DNA of 38,078 nucleotides from Smithellaceae bacterium (lineage in GTDB: Bacteria > Desulfobacterota > Syntrophia > Syntrophales > Smithellaceae): contig JAWOJC010000067.1 in NCBI GenBank assembly GCA_046484315.1, forward strand, positions 1 to 38,078. The letters are read 5' to 3'. Below, piece by piece: positions 6,993-38,078 of the stretch (positions within the stretch are counted from its first letter, which is position 1; each line of letters opens with the position of its first letter). The position numbers and the translations under genes are program-made. The notes below the pieces were generated by a model. The model made no database searches and was not told the origin of the DNA. It saw nothing but the letters and a program-made list of their open reading frames with translations.

Positions 6993-7192
6993 GGTCTACC
7001 CCCTGCGATGTGCGTGATTGTCATTTGTTTTTGAGCCAACACTTTGAACCTGGGGCCTATTTCTTGTTTGTGGTGAGCATGTCTGCCTTTTCCGCTGGTC
7101 GGGTGGCAGAAAGCCTGAAGCAGGCAACACCGGGCGCCCACTTATAAAAAGGTTCAAAATCGTGATTAACACGGCATAGGCGGGGGTTTTTT
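6993..7192 (+). ncRNA. ssrS: Candidate 6S RNA (ends approximate)
   Basis: About 200 nt with no ORF, directly downstream of zapA, which is the classic ssrS position. A long imperfect closing helix is visible: CCCCC 6999-7003 pairs with GGGGG 7182-7186, TGATTGTCATT about 7015-7026 pairs with AATCGTGATTAA 7158-7169 (several G-U pairs), TTGAACCT 7044-7051 pairs with AGGTTCAA 7150-7157, and TGGGGCC 7051-7057 pairs with GGCGCCCA 7133-7140. Unpaired internal segments lie between these helices. The element ends in a T6 run (7187-7192). Confidence 0.55.
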
Positions 7193-9761: not shown

Positions 9762-11051
9762 ATGAAAAGCGGTTTTGAAATCTTAAAGGAGCGGGGGTTC
9801 ATTGAACAGTTTACGGATGACTCCCTGATTACGGACCTTTTTTCCAAAGGCCCCGTCACCTGCTACATCGGATTTGATCCCACGGCCACCAGTCTGCATA
9901 TCGGCAGTCTCGTGCCGATCATGGCGCTGGCGCACATGCAGCAAAGCGGCAACCGGCCCCTCGCGCTTGTTGGCGGCGGCACCGGACTCATCGGCGACCC
10001 CAGCGGCAAAACCGAAATGCGCCAGGTGCTGACCCGCGAAAAGATCGATTACAACGCCCAATGCCTGGGCAGACAGCTTTCAAAGTACATCGATTTTGCC
10101 GATGGGAAAGCGCTGCTTCTCAACAACGCCGATTGGCTTACCCGAATTAATTATATTGAATTTCTGCGCGATATCGGCAGGCATTTCAGCGTCAACCGAA
10201 TGCTCGCGGCGGAAAGCTATAAAATTCGCCTGGAGAAGGGATTGAACTTCATTGAGTTCAACTACATGCTCCTGCAGGGCTATGACTTTCTGTATCTGTT
10301 CCAGAACCACGGCTGCGCCCTGCAGATGGGTGGCAACGACCAGTGGGGCAACATGCTGGCCGGCACCGAACTGATTCGCAAAGTCGAAGCCAAAGACGCG
10401 CATGCCCTGACCTTTCCGCTCATCACCACATCGCTGGGCCAGAAGATGGGTAAAACCGAAAAGGGCACCGTCTGGCTGGATGCCGAACTGACCTCGCCTT
10501 ATGAATATTACCAGTACTGGGTCAACTGCGATGACGCGGATGTGGAGCGGTTTTTAAAGCTCTTCACGTTTTTACCGCTCGAAGATATCGGCTCGGTCCG
10601 GTCACTTACAGACGCCCGGCTCAACATGGCCAAAGCCGTTTTGGCCTACGAGGCGACGAAAGTCACGCACGGCGAAGAGGCGGCCAGGGCCGCCTGGCGC
10701 GCCTCAATGGAGGCGTTCCATTCGCGGCCGGTGGATGCCGACCTGTTTGTGTCGAGCAGCATTCCGCGCTACGCCCCTGAGGCCGACACCTCGGGCATTC
10801 CCCGCTACGCCGTTTCCCGTCAGGATATTGATTCCGGATTGCTCATCACGTCCATTTGCGCCAAGTCGGGTCTTACACAGTCCATGTCGGAGGCCAAGCG
10901 CCTCATTGAACAGGGTGGCATCACCATCAACGAGCGTCAGGTGAAAACCATGGATGAAAAACTCTCCATCGATGATTTTGCCGGGAATTCCGAACTGCGC
11001 ATCCGCAAGGGGAAAAAGAAATATCTGATGGTGGAGATAGCCCCGGGCTGA
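9762..11051 (+). CDS. tyrS: Tyrosine--tRNA ligase
   Basis: The ORF spans 9747..11051. The ATG at 9762 is preceded by GGAGG (9749-9753). It has a HIGH-type motif (SLHIGSLV), a KMSKS-type motif (KMGKT), and a C-terminal S4-like domain. Confidence 0.95.
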   Translation: MKSGFEILKERGFIEQFTDDSLITDLFSKGPVTCYIGFDPTATSLHIGSLVPIMALAHMQQSGNRPLALVGGGTGLIGDPSGKTEMRQVLTREKIDYNAQCLGRQLSKYIDFADGKALLLNNADWLTRINYIEFLRDIGRHFSVNRMLAAESYKIRLEKGLNFIEFNYMLLQGYDFLYLFQNHGCALQMGGNDQWGNMLAGTELIRKVEAKDAHALTFPLITTSLGQKMGKTEKGTVWLDAELTSPYEYYQYWVNCDDADVERFLKLFTFLPLEDIGSVRSLTDARLNMAKAVLAYEATKVTHGEEAARAAWRASMEAFHSRPVDADLFVSSSIPRYAPEADTSGIPRYAVSRQDIDSGLLITSICAKSGLTQSMSEAKRLIEQGGITINERQVKTMDEKLSIDDFAGNSELRIRKGKKKYLMVEIAPG

Positions 11052-11073
11052 AGATGGATCTTGCGAGGGTCAG

Positions 11074-12057
11074 GTGTCGGGGGCGAGGCGCAAAACTATG
11101 ATCCAGAAACGGAAATCAGCCGTCCGCGATAAAGCGCGCAAAATACGCCTGCCCTGGCTGTTGAATCTGGCGGGGTTTTTCTGGCAGCGAAAAATTCTCA
11201 AAAGAAAAATGCCTCTCCTGGCGAGCTTTAAGGTCACCTACCACTGTAACCTGACATGCCGGGCCTGCCCGTATCACTTGCGAGGGGCCAAAGAAAACAC
11301 GCGTATATCCTGGACCCGGGCCGTCAGTGCCCTGGATTTACTGGCCCGCTTGGGAACCCGCATCGTCGTTTTTGAAGGCGGCGAGCCTATGTTGTGGCGC
11401 GACGCATCCTACCGGCTGGACGATCTGATCGTGTATGCCCGCAGGCGCTTTTTGCGCGTTGCGGTGACAACCAACGGAACGCTGCCTCTGGATATCCCCG
11501 CCGATATTGTCTGGGTCAGCCTCGACGGTCTCAAAGACGCGCACGACGGCCTGCGCAGCAATTCTTTCGATCGCGTCGCCTCGCATCTCAGGGATACGAA
11601 TCATCCGCGCGTCTTCACCCACACGACGATTAATCGCCGCAACCGGACCGAACTGGAATCTATCGCCAAGTGGGTGAAAAACATGCCCGCTGTGAAGGGA
11701 ATGACCTTTCAGTTTTTTTATCCCTATAACCAGGGCGAGGATGATCTGGCCCTGACGAAGGAAGAAAGGCGCGCCGCCGTTGAACAACTTATCGAACTTA
11801 AAAAAAAGGGTTTTCCTGTGCTGAATTCCGCAGGCCGTCTGCGCGCGATGATCGAGAACACATGGCGTTGTCATGACGACATCCTGATCAACGTTGATCC
11901 GGACGGCACTGTCACGAGAGGGTGCTATGTGAAGAGCCGCGGCGAAATCCACTGCGATGCCTGCGGTTTCACGCCGGTTGCCGAAGCGTCCGGCGCGCTC
12001 GACTTGATTCCGGGATCGCTTTGGGCGGGTTGGAAATTGTTTTTGAAAAAAGCCTGA
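11074..12057 (+). CDS. Radical SAM protein of unknown function, with an HpnH-like N-terminus and a Cys-rich C-terminal tail
   Basis: It carries a CxxxCxxC cluster motif (YHCNLTCRACPY), a GGEP motif (VFEGGEPML) and a TTNG motif. The C-terminal cysteines are CHDD...GC...HCDAC. The start is uncertain: GTG at 11074, or ATG at 11098 which has GAGG 9 nt upstream. Confidence 0.85.
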   Translation: MSGARRKTMIQKRKSAVRDKARKIRLPWLLNLAGFFWQRKILKRKMPLLASFKVTYHCNLTCRACPYHLRGAKENTRISWTRAVSALDLLARLGTRIVVFEGGEPMLWRDASYRLDDLIVYARRRFLRVAVTTNGTLPLDIPADIVWVSLDGLKDAHDGLRSNSFDRVASHLRDTNHPRVFTHTTINRRNRTELESIAKWVKNMPAVKGMTFQFFYPYNQGEDDLALTKEERRAAVEQLIELKKKGFPVLNSAGRLRAMIENTWRCHDDILINVDPDGTVTRGCYVKSRGEIHCDACGFTPVAEASGALDLIPGSLWAGWKLFLKKA

Positions 12058-12094
12058 GGGTAAAGGGTGTGAGGCATGAAGGAGCTGATTGCAT

Positions 12095-12418
12095 ATGAAA
12101 AGAGTCTATCTGGCACGCAACCCCGCGGATGCGCATTTGCTCAGGGGCATTTTAGAAAGTCATCACATCCAGGCCGTCGTTCATGGCGATTTTTTGTGGA
12201 GCGCGCGCGGCGAGGTGCCGCTGACGGTGGATACCAGCCCGTCGGTCTGGGTTCAACATGACATAGATTTCGAACGAGCTTCGGAGGTGGTGCGGCAGTT
12301 TCAGTCTCAGATCTCTGCCGACGCTTTTTCGGGAGCGGATTGGACCTGCGGCCACTGCGGCGAAACCAATGAAGGACAGTTTTCCGAATGCTGGCAGTGC
12401 GGCACCGGTCGGGATTAG
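12095..12418 (+). CDS. DUF2007-like (putative signal-transducing) domain fused to a C-terminal zinc ribbon
   Basis: The ORF spans 12089..12418. The ATG at 12095 has a GGAG 10 nt upstream. The N-terminus (VYLARNPADAHLLRGILESHHIQAVVHGD) is DUF2007-like. The C-terminus has CGHCGETNEGQFSECWQCG, a CxxC...CxxC pattern. Confidence 0.6.
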   Translation: MKRVYLARNPADAHLLRGILESHHIQAVVHGDFLWSARGEVPLTVDTSPSVWVQHDIDFERASEVVRQFQSQISADAFSGADWTCGHCGETNEGQFSECWQCGTGRD

Positions 12419-12470
12419 TCCGGCTTGCGCCTTCTTTGCGGCACAAAAGACACATCAGAAAGGACAGGCA

Positions 12471-12890
12471 ATGAATAAAAAGGAAATCGTCATCCTGGTG
12501 GCGGGCGTGCTGGCCATTCTGGCCGTCAGTTCGCATTTCAACGAACAGTCCAAAAAAAAAGCGGATTGGTACAAAGCCATCGTACAGGTCTCCGAGTCCA
12601 TAAACAGCCGCTGTCCGGCGATGCTCAGTGATGACATCCGGCTCGATGCGGTCGAGGCCGGAACGGACAGGCGTTTGACCTACCACTGCACCCTGATGCA
12701 TGTCCGCGCCCATGAGATTGATGTTTCATCATTTAAGGACCGCTTAAGACCGGGCATCGTAGGGCATGCCGGAAGCAACCCGGAGATGCAGGTTGTTCGC
12801 GATCATCAGGTGGAGCTGTTGTACGTCTACAAAGATAAAGACGGCACGGAGGCCTTCCGCATCTTCGTTTCTCCCAAGGACTATCTTTAA
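12471..12890 (+). CDS. Hypothetical membrane-anchored or secreted protein (139 aa)
   Basis: The internal ATG at 12471 of ORF 12369..12890 gives MNKKEIVILVAGVLAILAVSS, a single N-terminal hydrophobic helix. I do not recognise the family. Confidence 0.5.
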   Translation: MNKKEIVILVAGVLAILAVSSHFNEQSKKKADWYKAIVQVSESINSRCPAMLSDDIRLDAVEAGTDRRLTYHCTLMHVRAHEIDVSSFKDRLRPGIVGHAGSNPEMQVVRDHQVELLYVYKDKDGTEAFRIFVSPKDYL

Positions 12891-12937
12891 ACCGTTTCAC
12901 GTTTAAAGTTTCATGTCTCCTCAGTGTTGCCGCGATT

Positions 12938-14293
12938 TTATTCCTTGGGGATTCCGAATTTTTCCATCAGGTCGTAGAGCGTCGGACGGCTGATGCCGAG
13001 TTCCGCGGAGGCTTTGGTGAGATTGCCCTCATTGCGGGCGATGGATTTGACGACCATTTCCTTTTCCAGAAGGTCGCGTGCCTCCCGGAGGCCGAGCCGT
13101 TCGCGTGGCACGCCGTCTGCGCTGATTTCCAAATCCGCCGGTGTGATTTTTTTCTCATCGGTCATGATGACGGCCCTTTTGATGCGGTTTTCCAGCTCAC
13201 GAACATTGCCGGGCCAGTTGTACTGTTCAATGGCGTCGAGCGCCTGCTGCGTGAAACCTTTGATCTTCTTTTTGTTGGCCTGTACGTAGCGTTCGAGAAA
13301 GACCCTGGCTAGAAGCAGAACGTCCTCGTTTCTATCCCGCAGCGGCGGCAGCGCCACGGAGATGACACCCAGCCGGAAATATAAGTCTTCCCGGAATCCA
13401 CCGGTTTTCATGGCTTCTTTCAAGTCGCGGTTGGTCGCGGCGATGACGCGCGCGTCCACAGAAAAAGGCTCGCGGCCGCCGACACGCTCCACGACACCGT
13501 CCTGGAGAAACCGCAGCAGCTTGACTTGGAGCGAAAGCGGCAGCTCACCGATTTCGTCGAGAAACAGGGTGCCGCCGTGTGCCATTTCGAACTTTCCTTT
13601 GCGTTGAATGTGCGCGCCGGTGAAGGCGCCTTTCTCATGACCGAACAGTTCGCTTTCTATTAGATTTTCGGGAATCGCCCCGCAGTTGATCGGGATGAAT
13701 CTGTTGGATTGGCGAAGACTGAGCCGGTGCAGAGCGTGGGCGACCAGCTCCTTGCCCGTGCCGCTTTCGCCGGTGATCAGTACCGGTTCATCGGTGGTAG
13801 CCATTTTGCGGATGTCGGAAAAGACGTCCTGCATTTTCCGGCTGATGCCGATCATTTCTTCGAAATGGTCGGCGCCCAGTTTCCGGCGCAGAGATTTTTG
13901 CTCCTGTTCCAGTTCGGAGACATGGAAAGCACGTCGCAGGACGACTTTGAGTTCATCGGTTTGGATGGGTTTGTAGAAATAATCATACGCGCCTTTTTCA
14001 ATTGCGCGCAACGCGTATTCCTTTTCTCCCCGGCCGGTGATGATGATGACTTTCGTATCGGGGTAGTCCGTCAGAATTTCATCGAGAACGGCAAAGCCTT
14101 CTTCCGCGCCTGCGGGTTCCGGCGGCAGTCCCAGATCCAGAGTGACCACGGCGGGCTGTTCCTTGTGCATTGTCGCAACGGCGCTCGGGCGGTCCTCGGC
14201 CAGAAGAATTTCGTAATCACCGATCAGCGCCCATTTCATCTGGGTGCGCAGATCCTCGTCGTCGTCTACCAGTAAAAGTTTTTGTTTTTTCAA
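12938..14293 (-). CDS. prsR: Sigma-54-dependent response regulator, PEP-CTERM-box type (PrsR-like): REC + AAA+ + Fis-type HTH
   Basis: 451 aa with a TTG start. It has REC (LLLVDDDEDL...TLDLGLPP), GAFTGA, ESELFGHEKGAFTGA, and a C-terminal HTH (LTKASAELGISRPTLYDLMEKFGI). The start lies 1 nt after the prsK stop. Confidence 0.85.
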   Translation of the reverse strand: MKKQKLLLVDDDEDLRTQMKWALIGDYEILLAEDRPSAVATMHKEQPAVVTLDLGLPPEPAGAEEGFAVLDEILTDYPDTKVIIITGRGEKEYALRAIEKGAYDYFYKPIQTDELKVVLRRAFHVSELEQEQKSLRRKLGADHFEEMIGISRKMQDVFSDIRKMATTDEPVLITGESGTGKELVAHALHRLSLRQSNRFIPINCGAIPENLIESELFGHEKGAFTGAHIQRKGKFEMAHGGTLFLDEIGELPLSLQVKLLRFLQDGVVERVGGREPFSVDARVIAATNRDLKEAMKTGGFREDLYFRLGVISVALPPLRDRNEDVLLLARVFLERYVQANKKKIKGFTQQALDAIEQYNWPGNVRELENRIKRAVIMTDEKKITPADLEISADGVPRERLGLREARDLLEKEMVVKSIARNEGNLTKASAELGISRPTLYDLMEKFGIPKE

Positions 14294-32934: not shown

Positions 32935-34257
32935 TCATGGTGTCATTCGGGGCGACCACGATGGCATGACGGAAACGCCGTTGCCTTCTTGGAGCACCCG
33001 CGTATGCAGGCCATTGGAATTGATGATGCATAGCCGGGTTTTCGCGCCGGTGCGGGAGCCGTAGACAATTTGCCTGCCGGAAGGTGACCAGGAGGGATAT
33101 TCGTTATTGGCGTCGTCAAACGTCAACTGAGTCAGATTTTCGCCTTCGGTATCCACCGTAAAGATTTGAAACCGGCGATTGATCAATCCTTCGAAGGCAA
33201 TTTTCCCGCCGCGCGGTGACCAGGCGGGAGATGTATTATAGTTGCCCTCGTAAGTGATTCTTCTGACGTTATTGCCGTCGGCGTCCATGACAAATATCTG
33301 AGGTGTTCCCGACCGGTTGGAAACAAAGGCGATCTTCTCACCTGCGGGCGACCAGGCGGGAGACACATCGATGGCGTAATTGTAAGTAAGGCGTTTGAGA
33401 CGCATCGTGTCGAGATCAAGGACGTATATTTCTTCGTTGGAATCCCTGCTCAGTGTCATCAGGAGCTTCCGGCTGTCGGGAGAAAAACCGCCGGATAAGT
33501 TCAGACCCTGGGATGACGAGACGATTCTTTCCTGTCCGGTTTTCAGGTTTCGCAAATAGACGGCGGGACGGCCGCTTTGATAGGAGGTAAAGGCCAGATA
33601 ACGACCGTCGGGCGACCAGCGTGGCGCGGCGATAATACTTTGATGACGTGTCAGTCGGGCGGTATCTTCACCGTCATAGCTGATGGTGTGAATATCCGCT
33701 TCGGATCCGTTTTTGGACACGAAAGCGATGCGGGTATTGAAGTCGCCTGCGTCGCCTGTCAATGTCAGGAGAATATCCGTGGTGGTCGCTCGCGCCAGCG
33801 CGCGCAGGTCGGGCGTTTTCGAGATGTACCGCTTGTAAAGGAGGGTGCTGCCCCGCACAACATCATACAACCGGATTTCGCAGGCCGTCTCCTGAGGACT
33901 GACCGTCGTGATGAGACCGGTCAAAAGATAGTCCGCGCCGATGGCCGTCCAGTCTGAAAAGCGGATACTCTCCGGAAGGGAAACGCCGCTTTCGTCGAGG
34001 AAACTATTTTTGTCCAGAGGATTGAACAAGCCGGTGATCCCCAGGAGCTTTCTGATCTGTTCCGGCAGGGCGACGCTGAGATCCGCGGTTTTTGCCTGCC
34101 TGTCCGCCTTTTGTGTAAAATCGCTTACGGCGATGGGAAACTGACGGAAACCGGGCGAATCGATATCAATGTAAATTTTGGATGCGCGCGCCAGATCTGC
34201 CGTTGCCAACAGGGCCGGCAGAATGATGAAGAGCGTCCAGATTGATAGATGCTTCAT
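32935..34257 (-). CDS. tolB: Tol-Pal system beta-propeller protein TolB
   Basis: 440 aa with a signal peptide, a TolB N-domain, and repeated propeller blades (P.WSPDG / PAWSP.G motifs repeated about 5 times). Confidence 0.95.
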   Translation of the reverse strand: MKHLSIWTLFIILPALLATADLARASKIYIDIDSPGFRQFPIAVSDFTQKADRQAKTADLSVALPEQIRKLLGITGLFNPLDKNSFLDESGVSLPESIRFSDWTAIGADYLLTGLITTVSPQETACEIRLYDVVRGSTLLYKRYISKTPDLRALARATTTDILLTLTGDAGDFNTRIAFVSKNGSEADIHTISYDGEDTARLTRHQSIIAAPRWSPDGRYLAFTSYQSGRPAVYLRNLKTGQERIVSSSQGLNLSGGFSPDSRKLLMTLSRDSNEEIYVLDLDTMRLKRLTYNYAIDVSPAWSPAGEKIAFVSNRSGTPQIFVMDADGNNVRRITYEGNYNTSPAWSPRGGKIAFEGLINRRFQIFTVDTEGENLTQLTFDDANNEYPSWSPSGRQIVYGSRTGAKTRLCIINSNGLHTRVLQEGNGVSVMPSWSPRMTP

Positions 34258-34276
34258 AAAGCAGGGCCTTTCTTGT

Positions 34277-35017
34277 TTACTTCAGCTCCGACGAAGGAAA
34301 TCGGATGCCGATTTCGATGCTGTTGCGTTTGTACGCTTCCGGCAGCGGCGGGAAGGGGGCGGATTTTTTAACAGCCCTGAGCGCAGATTCGTCATAGTAG
34401 CTGTTGCCGGAGCGTTTCTCAAAGCCGATATATTCCGGGTTTCCGTCGCGCGCGATGCGGATTTCAATGATGGTCAGCGTGTTTGTCGCGGGGCGCAGCG
34501 CATCCGGCAGCGACCAGTTGCTTTTAATCCTGGCTTGGACAAATGCGCTGTATTCGGCCAGGTGGGACGCGTCTGCCGCGCCGGGACCGGTCTGGCCGCC
34601 ATACGCAGACGCCGGTTGCGAATCCTGTTTTTCAGGCGCGGGATGCGCAGCCGTGATCTGTTTTTGACGGATGGCGCTGATGGCCTTTGCAATGTCCGGC
34701 GCAGGTCCGTCTTGCGCTTTTTTGATGGTTGTCTGCCGCGACGTGTCGATCTCGCGCTTCACGATAACCCCACCGGCGGCAGGCGACGGCCGCATAATAT
34801 CCTGAAGCCCCGGGAGTTGGCGCGACGTCATGACCGCCTCAGCGCTGACCAGCGATACGGAATATGTGCCGCTAAACGTCAACGGACGCGATGGTGTGGA
34901 TATGGAGATCATCGCCAGGGCAATCACGATCAGGTGGAGAAGCAGGGAAAGAAAAAACATGTTTCGGGTGGTGACGGGATTGCCGCGAAAGCTCCTTTGG
35001 GGCTTCGGGTGGATCAT
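34277..35017 (-). CDS. tolA: TolA-position protein with a TonB-type C-terminal domain
   Basis: 246 aa with an N-terminal TM helix (MFFLSLLLHLIVIALAMISI), a Pro/Ala-rich linker, and a TonB_C-like end (YSAFVQARIKSNWSLP...IRIARDGNPEYIGFEKRSGNSYYDESALRAVKKSAPFPPLP). Its ATG overlaps the tolR stop (ATGA). Confidence 0.7.
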   Translation of the reverse strand: MIHPKPQRSFRGNPVTTRNMFFLSLLLHLIVIALAMISISTPSRPLTFSGTYSVSLVSAEAVMTSRQLPGLQDIMRPSPAAGGVIVKREIDTSRQTTIKKAQDGPAPDIAKAISAIRQKQITAAHPAPEKQDSQPASAYGGQTGPGAADASHLAEYSAFVQARIKSNWSLPDALRPATNTLTIIEIRIARDGNPEYIGFEKRSGNSYYDESALRAVKKSAPFPPLPEAYKRNSIEIGIRFPSSELK

Positions 35018-35439
35018 TTCCTGCCCTCGGGTGGCGGTTCGGTAATCATACCGAGTTTATCGACGCCGGCCCTGCGGATTTCCGCCATGACTTCCACCAC
35101 AAAGCCGTAAGGAACATTTTTATCGGCGCGCAGGAAAACCTCACGGTCGATGCGGTTGGCGAAAATTGCGATGAGTTTCGGTTGAATTTCGCCCAGAGGC
35201 ATGCGGGTTTTGTTGAGATAAATTTCCTTATTTTCATTAATGCTCAGGATCAGTTTTTCTTCCGTGACGTCCATACTTTTGGATTTCACGCGCGGCAGAT
35301 TGACATCGATGCCCATCGACAGCATCGGCGCCGTAATGACGAAAATGACCAGTAGCACCAGCATCACATCCACGAAAGGGGTGACGTTGATTTCGGACAT
35401 CGTCTTATTCGGGTGATGCCTCCTTCTTAGTATCCGCAT
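35014..35439 (-). CDS. tolR: TolR / ExbD-family biopolymer transport protein
   Basis: 141 aa: SEINVTPFVDVMLVLLVIFVITAP...LRADKNVPYGFVVEVMAEIRRAGV. Confidence 0.85.
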   Translation of the reverse strand: MRILRRRHHPNKTMSEINVTPFVDVMLVLLVIFVITAPMLSMGIDVNLPRVKSKSMDVTEEKLILSINENKEIYLNKTRMPLGEIQPKLIAIFANRIDREVFLRADKNVPYGFVVEVMAEIRRAGVDKLGMITEPPPEGRK

Positions 35440-35463
35440 GGTCGATGGTCCTTTAAGTTCTGA

Positions 35464-36183
35464 TTATTTGCGCACCAGGTAGCGTTCGACAATGTTGAGA
35501 AATTCGTCGGCGAAGTTGTCCATGTCCTGAACCATGGCTTTGGACCGGTTGAGAAAGTAGTTGTAGAAAATAACCGCGGGAATCGCGGCGGCAAGACCGG
35601 CCGCCGTGGCAATGAGTGCCTCGGAAATGCCGGGGGCCACGACTGCCAGCGTAGCGGATCCGCGCGCGCCGATGGCTTTGAAGGTTTCCATAATGCCCCA
35701 GACCGTGCCGAAAAGTCCGATGAAGGGAGAGGCGGACCCGGTCGTGGCCAGAAAGCCCAGTGCGCTTTCCAATTTCGTCATTTCGGTATTGGAGGCCCGG
35801 TTGAGCGCGCGCTGGACATTATCGATCGACGACAGCGGGATGTCGTCGCTCTGAGACGATTCCTTAAAAGGTTTGTTCATTTTGGTCAGCTCCGAGTATC
35901 CGACACGGAAAACTTCGGCGGTGGTCGAGAAGGTGTATTTTTTGGCCGCGGGCAGAACTTCGGAAAGCTTGCTGCTGCGCTGGTAGTCGGCATCGAAGGC
36001 ATCATTCTCTTTCTGGATCTTCCGGTAGTAACGAAACTTCAAAAAGATGATCGTCCAGGAGACAATTGAAAAAATCAGTAGAATCAGCAAAATAAATTGA
36101 ACGACCCATCCGGCATCCCAGACCATCCCGAGCAGGGAACCGTGAAAACCGCCGCCTATATCTAATGATCCAATATCTTTCAC
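35464..36183 (-). CDS. tolQ: TolQ / MotA/ExbB-family proton channel
   Basis: 239 aa with a GTG start and GGAG upstream. LATTGSASPFIGLFGTVWGIMETF...VAPGISEALIATAAGLAAAIPAV. Confidence 0.9.
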   Translation of the reverse strand: MKDIGSLDIGGGFHGSLLGMVWDAGWVVQFILLILLIFSIVSWTIIFLKFRYYRKIQKENDAFDADYQRSSKLSEVLPAAKKYTFSTTAEVFRVGYSELTKMNKPFKESSQSDDIPLSSIDNVQRALNRASNTEMTKLESALGFLATTGSASPFIGLFGTVWGIMETFKAIGARGSATLAVVAPGISEALIATAAGLAAAIPAVIFYNYFLNRSKAMVQDMDNFADEFLNIVERYLVRK

Positions 36184-36307
36184 TATTTTATCTCCAAAAG
36201 TGGTTTTGAAATTTGCGTTACGGTAAAGTAAAAACCAAGCCTTGTCAATCCTTTTTGCTTTGCGTCTGTGTTGGATGATTGGCGAGCATCAAGGTTGCAT
36301 CGCCTGC

Positions 36308-36958
36308 TTACAGATGTTCCGGCTCGAAGGTGACAACGTCGTCGATGCAGTCGGTATCCGCCACAAGCATTGCCAGGCGGTCGATGCCGAGCGCGATGCC
36401 GGCGGCCGGCGGCATGCTCGCAAGGGCCGTCAGAAACTTCTCGGGCATGTCGTAGCGTGACCAGTTCTTTTTCGAGCGGGCCGTTTGCGCCTCTTCAAAA
36501 CGACGGCGCTGCTCATCCACGCCAGTGAGTTCCGAAAAACCGTTGGCGATCTCCATCCCGCCGATGTAGAGCTCGAATCGTTCCGCCACGGCGGGGTCAC
36601 TTTTTTTGATTTTAGACAGGGCGGCCAGTTTTGCCGGATAATCATAGAGAAAGGCAGGGCGGTTGACTCCGAGATGAGGCTCAACCTGCTGTGTCAGTAT
36701 TTCATCGAAGCGGTCTGTTTCCATGGCTTGTGTCAACGAAACGGATGCGTATTGAGAAAAGGCTTCGGCAACGGTGATTCTTTCCCAAGGGGCTGGTAGA
36801 TGAATGGCGGGCTTTGTTTGCCAGACGAGATCCCGGCCGCACTCCATCTCTTGAAAAACAGCGATAAGTAATGCCTCGCACTGATCCATCAGGCGATGAT
36901 AGTCAAAGCCCGCCACATACCACTCAAGCAGCGTGAATTCCGGCAGATGCCGGTCTCC
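36308..36958 (-). pseudogene. epmA: 5'-truncated EF-P lysine aminoacylase (EpmA/GenX/PoxA); only the C-terminal ~216 codons are present
   Basis: From GDRHLPEFTLLEWY onward, the ORF is colinear with E. coli EpmA from about GRYHNPEFTMLEWY to its end (ERFELYIGGMEIANGFSEL, GIALGIDRLAML). The 49 codons upstream within ORF 36308..37105 are Arg/Gly-rich nonsense. They are simply the -1 frame of the Hint ORF. Confidence 0.8.
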
Positions 36959-37551
36959 ACTACCTGGTAGCGCTCGATGACCGGACGGCTCACCAGGGCC
37001 TCGCAACCGATATCGTAAGTGAGAACGCGGTCGCCGGGAACGACCTCCAGAATAGGCTTTAAGGACCCGTTTTCCATTTTGACACGCATCTCCGCGGGGA
37101 AGCATCCCGTTGACTGGGAAAGGATCTGCTGTTTTTCCTTTTCGATTTTGGCCAGCTGATTTTCGAGCTGTTGGATTTCCTTCTCGGCGGCCGCGGCCTG
37201 GGCATACCCCAGGTCGGACTCCTCCTCGGCAGTGGGATGGCCGTCCAGCTTGACGGCCCCGAAGGTGTTGACGTGTTGCACCTGTTTGATCACGCCGATT
37301 TGACGCTGCTCTATCTCATATTTCTTGAGGCCCTGGATGCGCGATTTAAGGTTGGCGCTATCCCGCTCCAGTTCGTCGATGGATCGCGCGGGCGGCTGTG
37401 GGATGGCGGCTTTGGGTGCCGGGGGCGCTTGATTTCCGGCACTCGACGGGCCGTCAACCGAAAAAAAAACGCATCCCTGTTGGGGAAGAACGAGCGCCGA
37501 AAGGAGCGCCAGCGCAGATACCATGGGTGACAGCAATCGCATGCGTTTCAT
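36889..37551 (-). CDS. Secreted coiled-coil protein ending in a truncated N-terminal Hint (intein/pretoxin-HINT-like) segment
   Basis: 220 aa with GAGG 6 nt upstream of the ATG at 37551. It has a signal peptide (MKRMRLLSPMVSALALLSALVLPQQGC; the lipobox is non-canonical), a Pro-rich linker and a coiled coil. This is followed by GCFPAEMRVKMENGSLKPILEVVPGDRVLTYD...SRPVIERY, the classic start of a Hint fold. About 50 aa later the sequence becomes out-of-frame epmA and stops. Confidence 0.7.
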   Translation of the reverse strand: MKRMRLLSPMVSALALLSALVLPQQGCVFFSVDGPSSAGNQAPPAPKAAIPQPPARSIDELERDSANLKSRIQGLKKYEIEQRQIGVIKQVQHVNTFGAVKLDGHPTAEEESDLGYAQAAAAEKEIQQLENQLAKIEKEKQQILSQSTGCFPAEMRVKMENGSLKPILEVVPGDRVLTYDIGCEALVSRPVIERYQVVETGICRNSRCLSGMWRALTIIA

Positions 37552-37895
37552 GAGTGACCTCGACTGGGGTAGCGGAATTGAATCCTGGCCGATGGCTTTC
37601 CCGGCGCAACGGCGCGGCCTCCTTCATATGGCGACGAGCCTTTTACTACAACCGTCTCATCCTTGTCAAAGTAAAATCAGGTAATGATGATGGGGTGCCC
37701 CATTCCTTGCTGTAGAAATCAATTATGGTGAATCCTCTCATCAATGCAGATGCCATGATATACCGCCGTGTTCGTGCGACGGCGGGGACGGGCTTTGGTT
37801 TTGTGATTATGCGCCACTCCATTTAAGAAATGCCGTCTTGTCGGGCCGGTTCTGCGGATACCTCCCTCGACCTGCGTTTGACCCATGCCGTCACG

Positions 37896-38078
37896 CTACC
37901 GCTTCCGGATCGCCGTCTGCTCCGGAAGACCGGCCGGGTTTACCATTCCCGTCGTTCCAGCCTGCTGGTGCTGCTCGATCAGGGCACAGACTCTGGTGTG
38001 TTTGCGCTGGCTTTTTATCCGGTACATGTCACGGTCGGCAACCTTGACAAGGTCCTCCGCGGCCTGGGCATCCCGGGG
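37896..38078 (-). CDS. C-terminal end of a probable GGDEF-domain (diguanylate cyclase-like) protein; the 5' part is outside the window
   Basis: Not in the ORF track. Minus-strand translation from the window edge gives PRDAQAAEDLVKVADRDMYRIKSQRKH...IRKR, with a stop (TAG) at 37898-37896. AD.(D/A)MYR.K is the typical last helix of GGDEF domains. Only 60 codons are visible. Confidence 0.5.
   Translation of the reverse strand, partial: PRDAQAAEDLVKVADRDMYRIKSQRKHTRVCALIEQHQQAGTTGMVNPAGLPEQTAIRKR

Follow-up and report, generated by a model that had tools for sequence, protein, structure and literature searches.

A same-strand junction of two truncated genes near a Smithellaceae contig end is probably an artefact that links two separate loci

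Near one end of a Smithellaceae contig, the 5′ two thirds of a gene for a Hint-domain lipoprotein abut, on the same strand, the 3′ two thirds of epmA. The window analysed here is the whole contig, 38078 nt in length, and the junction lies ~1.1 kb (1,117 nt) from its end. From the position of the junction, the synteny of the two partners and an apparent shift in composition and relatedness, we infer that it is probably a chimeric contig end that arose in library preparation or assembly, and not a new biological element. In what follows, the sequence from the junction to the contig end is called the tail, and the remainder of the window the body.

Two truncated genes meet at a sharp junction

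The features at and around the junction are as follows.

37896–38078, minus strand: last 60 codons and stop codon TAG (37898–37896) of a gene for a GGDEF diguanylate cyclase, which runs off the contig end (tblastn, blastn)
37701–37886, minus strand: intergenic stretch (~180 nt) that separates the GGDEF stop from the promoter region of the Hint-lipoprotein gene (pairwise alignment A1)
37552–37700, minus strand: upstream region and 5′ leader of the Hint-lipoprotein gene, non-coding, ~88% identical to locus L081
36962–37551, minus strand: 5′ two thirds of the Hint-lipoprotein gene, residues 1–197 (Pfam Hint; identity to P0002, the protein of L081)
36956–36963, minus strand: junction zone (blastn end points; side-by-side DNA of the window, L081 and L001–L004)
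36940–36953, no strand assigned: palindrome CCGGCATCTGCCGG, perfect, 6+2+6, inside the EpmA codons D-R-H-L-P
36308–36958, minus strand: 3′ two thirds of epmA, ~residues 98–312 of a 312-aa EpmA, stop included (TIGR00462; identity to L003)
35464–36183, minus strand: tolQ, first gene of a tolQ-tolR-tolA-like-tolB-pal-TPR (ybgF-like) cluster (Pfam; synteny with L003)

An earlier note on this DNA had described two truncated genes meeting on the same strand in the −1 frame, each ORF carrying a nonsense tail or head. Open reading frames, profile searches and DNA alignments all agree with that description, and that two truncated genes meet here is confirmed. The two minus-strand ORFs span 36889–37551 (220 aa) and 36308–37105 (265 aa), and their coordinates give the overlap of 217 nt that had been noted. 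By blastn, L081, the locus with the closest Hint-lipoprotein gene, aligns with the window from 37700 to 36962, and the epmA genes of relatives align from 36961 or 36952 to 36317. The last Hint-homologous base is thus ~36962, and the first EpmA codon, GGA, occupies 36958–36956, with a frame shift of −1. The final Hint-homologous codons, TAC CAG GTA (Y-Q-V), and the initial EpmA codons, GGA GAC CGG CAT (G-D-R-H), lie one frame apart. Profile searches and the DNA comparison also bear out the proposed start of the Hint similarity at the Cys codon 37104–37102 and of EpmA at 36958.

When the DNA of the window was set beside that of L081 and L001–L004, any microhomology of both parents at the junction came to at most ~6 nt, and no repeat of k-mer size was found there. 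A comparison of the window with itself revealed no repeats between tail and body beyond chance, all matches being 19 nt or shorter. Both remnants are open reading frames without signs of decay, their conserved residues reaching as far as the junction. The missing parts, namely the EpmA N-terminus and the Hint C-terminus, were found nowhere in the window, and neither were efp, epmB or a Sel1 gene.

The palindrome (arms CCGGCA and TGCCGG around a TC spacer) had been described as an imperfect inverted repeat exactly at the junction. Its arms are in fact perfect, and it lies 5 nt away, wholly in the EpmA-coding part. The window contains 92 such repeats (spacers of 0–6 nt), and 5.9% of positions have one equally close. 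Relatives encode the same D-R-H-L-P residues without the palindrome. We therefore rejected it as a mechanistic element and regard it as a chance coding palindrome.

The tail carries the 5′ part of a Hint-lipoprotein gene

The lipoprotein remnant comprises, in order, a signal peptide with a lipobox (Gly26-Cys27), a coiled coil and the first 48 residues of a Hint domain. Residues 145–192 of the 220-aa ORF match positions 8–54 of 213 of the Pfam Hint profile (PF01079) with an E-value of 7e-8, above the gathering score, and the Hint similarity proposed for this ORF thus stands. The Hint part runs from Cys150, in the motif GCFP, to Val197; the fragment had been put at ~50 aa, and its actual length is 48 aa. 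Over the remnant, identity to P0002 and L081 is 79% at the amino-acid level and 84% at the nucleotide level. In the family alignment (A2), the window copy is homologous through Val197 (‘YQV’) and then fully diverged.

Block A of the Hint fold, with its N-terminal Cys nucleophile, is present (Cys150, in the invariant GCF motif). The fold is otherwise incomplete: blocks B, F and G and the terminal His-Asn are missing, and with them ~90 aa bearing the blocks ANHLYTING, TTGGERLLT, DTHNFYV and YLVHN[ST]. Measured against the Hint superfamily as a whole (PF01079, PF07591 and the BIL domains), the window copy retains block A only, in 48 aa. The PT-HINT profile (PF07591) had no match in the window ORF, and in the intact P0002 it matches over residues 159–280. 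Of the traits of its family, the window shows the lipobox, the coiled coil, the start of the Hint domain and an upstream GGDEF gene, and lacks the C-terminal ~90 aa and the Sel1/PG_binding neighbour.

Further towards the contig end, the GGDEF fragment is 87% identical at the amino-acid level (tblastn) to residues 606–665 of the CHASE4-HAMP-PAS-GGDEF protein of L081, and 90% identical to L081 at the nucleotide level (blastn). The ~180-nt intergenic stretch that follows is missing from L081 (alignment A1) and from L082; the window and the fetched loci contain no second copy of it, and it had no Rfam match. Rfam likewise gave no match, to a riboswitch or any other known RNA, for the junction or for the leader of the Hint-lipoprotein gene. 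The leader (37552–37700) and the distant locus L083 have the short blocks TTCAATTC and CGAGG in common.

The body ends in the 3′ part of epmA

Residues 49–260 of the 265-aa ORF match positions 88–304 of 304 of the EpmA profile TIGR00462 (E 6.9e-69), so that the ORF does not align with EpmA over its full length. Its score of 232.6 bits lies under the cutoff of 286.9 because the protein is truncated. The ORF also matches positions 109–304 of 308 of tRNA-synt_2 (PF00152; E 3.5e-34). The window EpmA is 70% identical in amino acids to residues 101–312 of the EpmA of L003, in which His101 corresponds to window position 36949. Full-length relatives have 312 aa, and ~97 N-terminal residues are gone from the window copy. 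The N-terminal truncation proposed earlier is therefore real, and the figure then given, ~105 residues, is replaced by ~97 on the L003 alignment.

In common with Smithellaceae EpmA (GenX/PoxA, the EF-P-(R)-β-lysine ligase), the stretch 36311–36958 has the motif 3 region, RHLPEFTLLEWY from motif 2 and homology over the catalytic core; it lacks motif 1 and the opening half of motif 2. It differs from EpmA in its length and sub-cutoff score, and in having neither efp nor epmB beside it. Judged from its sequence, the fragment as written cannot be an active enzyme.

Downstream, window TolQ is 91% identical in amino acids to TolQ of L003, and synteny with L003 extends over 34013–36952. The genes of the tol cluster match the Pfam families MotA_ExbB, ExbD, TonB_2, TolB_N/PD40, OmpA and TPR_6/YfiO. 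The gene tolQ is the usual downstream neighbour of epmA, and the gap between the two is ~0.1 kb in the window, L003, L008 and L012. In L004, L005, L006, L015, L016 and L021, tolQ instead lies 1.3–2.6 kb 3′ of epmA (~10650–13200 in locus coordinates); the longer gap in several Smithellaceae relatives suggests that something is inserted between epmA and tolQ there.

The two partners belong to separate conserved loci

The earlier note had suggested comparing synteny with relatives, and that comparison resolves the GGDEF/Hint side and the epmA/tolQ side into two separate conserved loci. The order epmB-efp-epmA occurs in 23 of 23 Syntrophales relatives (L001–L023), and tolQ follows epmA at 0.1–2.6 kb in 13 of the 23. 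None of them (0/23) has a Hint-lipoprotein gene within 10 kb of epmA.

The Hint-lipoprotein gene belongs to a cluster of a different make-up: GGDEF, Hint-lipoprotein, Sel1+PG_binding_1, Guanylate_cyc-AAA_16(-TPR), an unknown protein of ~328 aa and a radical SAM protein. This order is conserved in L081, L082, L083, L087 and L088/L089, for the distal genes where the contig reaches that far. The GGDEF gene stands upstream of the Hint-lipoprotein gene, directly or past one intervening gene, in L081, L082, L083 and L088/L089, wherever upstream sequence is available. Downstream, the Sel1+PG_binding_1 gene follows in L081, L082, L083, L087 and L089, at identities down to 46%; these five are every relative with enough downstream sequence. 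A C25 peptidase gene lies near the cluster in L083 and L087.

The window thus holds the upstream half of the Hint cluster and the downstream half of the epmB-efp-epmA-tolQ locus. Since these are two separate conserved loci, the junction joins what lies apart in every relative and does not represent a small local deletion.

Composition and relatedness appear to shift at the junction

The tail offers 255 codons (1.1 kb) for composition tests, and the reference for its possible origin was a single locus, L081 (13.9 kb). On that basis, the log-likelihood ratio of codon usage in the tail, for the body model versus the L081 model, was −0.008 per codon. This is lower than in all 42 equal-sized chunks of the body (mean +0.021, sd 0.015), ~2 sd off the body mean, and it is central in the L081 distribution (mean −0.012). 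Tetranucleotide frequencies of the 1.1-kb tail correlated at 0.77 with the body and at 0.80–0.82 with L081, and 1 of 33 body chunks leaned to L081 by this measure.

Relatedness appears to change as well. The tail has a relative, L081, at 84–90% nucleotide and 79–87% amino-acid identity, with the non-coding leader included. The best relative of the body's EpmA stands at 71% amino-acid identity among 5.8 billion proteins, the same Logan assemblies included. Identities among relatives are 55–71% for EpmA versus 43–51% in the lipoprotein family outside P0002, so that EpmA is the slower-evolving of the two. The top Logan matches to EpmA, P0027 and P0028, come from samples other than that of L081, and the identity gap may alternatively be due to the absence of L081's own epmA from the database. 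Codon, tetranucleotide and identity shifts all point one way, for a short tail and one reference locus; a similar composition signal could also come from bias specific to the tail genes, or from their recent acquisition by horizontal transfer.

The junction in other assemblies

Neither chimeric ORF had an exact record in public assemblies, the NCBI copy being the single one found. An exact 33-mer from the Hint side of the junction and a 36-mer from the epmA side gave 0 matches each in JGI metagenome contigs, so that these scans yielded no sibling contig, whether intact or with the junction. When the Hint domain of P0002 was used in a word-indexed search, none of the 10 proteins returned was a C-terminal Hint fragment with the locus tag R6W75_. 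Little weight attaches to the absence of the junction from other data, as the collections searched contain no close relative of the strain. A literature search with the sample accessions of L081 and L082 found no paper.

Origin of the join

In the artefactual join that we favour, a Smithellaceae segment of 37 kb, broken off inside epmA, would have been linked to a 1.1-kb fragment of another locus, possibly from another, L081-like genome of the same sample; this fragment carries the 3′ end of the GGDEF gene, the leader and the first part of the Hint-lipoprotein gene. The link would stem either from a library fragment or read that was itself chimeric, or from the assembler, in end extension or gap closing. 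Neither gene would then be truncated in the organism, and the 220-aa and 265-aa ORFs would be by-products of reading across a false join. The placing of the junction 1,117 nt from the end argues for this, since a real breakpoint would fall that close in ~6% of cases on a 38-kb contig. Short chimeric tails are typical of misjoins. The same reading draws on the membership of the partners in different conserved loci, with their missing halves absent from the window, on the apparent change in codon usage, tetranucleotides and nearest-relative identity at the junction, on the undecayed state of both remnants, and on the lack of any other assembly that carries the chimeric ORFs or the junction flanks.

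In these respects the window resembles chimeric MAG contigs, in which non-adjacent loci are joined, the missing parts lie off the contig and genes are cut mid-domain; here, the short arm is the 1.1-kb contig end, and composition and identity appear to shift across the join. It is unlike typical cases in the sequence at the join itself. De Bruijn misjoins typically occur at a shared repeat of at least k−1 bases, and with at most ~6 nt shared, the usual misjoin of this type is excluded, so that a chimeric molecule or a joining step outside the graph must be assumed. A contig of 38 kb also points to fair sequencing depth, against which a chimeric path would not normally prevail. An assembly chimera had been the second choice of the earlier note; it fits the indirect evidence of contig end, composition and nearest-relative identity better than the deletion preferred there, and what it lacks is the shared k-mer repeat.

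We consider it possible, if rather unlikely, that the junction is instead a genuine recent rearrangement in the sampled Smithellaceae population, produced by illegitimate recombination between breaks in the Hint-lipoprotein gene and in epmA. Such an event could have been a large deletion, an inversion of a segment with opposite-oriented ends or a translocation. The sharp junction is what illegitimate recombination predicts and is unlike a k-mer-driven misjoin, and partners on the same strand are topologically compatible with a deletion. The gene family of the tail occurs in Desulfobacterota, including a Desulfobacteraceae MAG, and tail composition is not wildly off that of the body (GC 0.577 versus 0.538; tetranucleotide r 0.77 versus a chunk mean of 0.82). 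If genuine, the junction would resemble pseudogenes left by illegitimate recombination or deletion in its abrupt truncation, little or no microhomology and frame shift. It would differ from them in showing no further decay, in striking the EF-P modification module and in lying, unexpectedly, at a contig end. With a deletion, efp and epmB would be gone too, as they lie directly upstream of epmA in 23/23 relatives; EF-P is nearly universal in bacteria. Moreover, the undecayed remnants demand a very recent event, yet one that is dominant in the population. The stop of the contig 1.1 kb further on, the apparent shift in codon usage and nearest-relative identity, and the failure to find the same junction in any other assembly likewise count against a genuine event. 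Were it genuine, both genes would be pseudogenes and the cell would lack a functional EF-P β-lysyl ligase, a natural loss of an EF-P modification enzyme in a syntroph, with no β-lysylated EF-P, which would be of modest interest.

Deletion or illegitimate recombination had been put forward as the simplest reading of the truncations. The truncations are real, as shown above; a simple local deletion does not fit, as the genes belong to separate conserved loci, and a deletion would have to be very large or give way to another kind of rearrangement. In its simplest literal form, the proposal amounts to a small deletion between a neighbouring Hint-lipoprotein gene and epmA, taking ~0.3 kb of each gene and the spacer. 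The shared strand and direction agree with it, but no relative has the Hint-lipoprotein gene beside epmA: Sel1/PG_binding follows the Hint gene wherever enough downstream sequence exists, and efp precedes epmA (23/23). We regard such a deletion as very improbable. Still less credible is a functional fusion or a programmed −1 frameshift that would yield a lipoprotein-Hint-EpmA hybrid, for which only the −1 frame relation speaks. Such a hybrid would lack blocks B, F and G on the Hint side and, on the EpmA side, motif 1 together with half of motif 2. The junction sequence shows neither an evident slippery heptamer nor an evident conserved structure, and no homologue with such an architecture was found among the matches. 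We rejected the hybrid on the grounds that both domains are incomplete and that no homologue has that architecture. Together, local deletion and functional fusion account for a very small share of the probability. Whether a chimeric contig end or a pseudogenising rearrangement, the feature would be an ordinary one.

Consequences for annotation

The main consequence concerns annotation quality. In GenBank the two products appear as R6W75_02695 (hypothetical protein, 220 aa) and as an ‘amino acid--tRNA ligase-related protein’ of 202 aa, neither marked as a pseudogene or as partial; both result when a broken or false join is read through. The length of 202 aa implies an internal start, at codon 64 (GTG) of the 265-aa ORF. 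The terminal 1.1 kb of the contig may be foreign to this genome.

An intact Hint-lipoprotein family

The more promising biology is that of the intact Hint-lipoprotein gene cluster, which we met during the synteny check. Intact relatives of the window copy (P0002–P0023) have 276–293 aa and consist of a signal peptide, an invariant lipobox Gly-Cys, a coiled coil, a Hint domain of ~133 aa and a poly-Gly-Lys tail. The Hint domain has an invariant G-C-F(-P) at its start and YLVHN-[ST] at its end. The intact genes were located at L081 3016–3879, L083 10001–10855, L087 174–1031 and L089 1645–2475.

The family resembles Hedgehog in that its GCF(P) start is the Hedgehog cleavage motif, and among PDB sequences it matches Sonic hedgehog best, at the GCFP cleavage site. 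Its C-terminal HN-Ser/Thr is like that of class 1 inteins. The BIL domains of PMC7664689 have no +1 nucleophile and mainly cleave, and the intact family, with Ser/Thr after YLVHN, is unlike these. It is also unlike the PT-HINT proteins of polymorphic toxins, being a small coiled-coil lipoprotein with only poly-Gly-Lys, and no toxin, after the Hint domain. Independently of the junction, the family may thus represent an uncharacterised module of the cell envelope, predicted to be autoprocessing.

Elsewhere in the window, a full-length 6S (SsrS) RNA gene lies at 6997–7190 on the plus strand (Rfam RF00013, 93.5 bits), the only Rfam match in the window.
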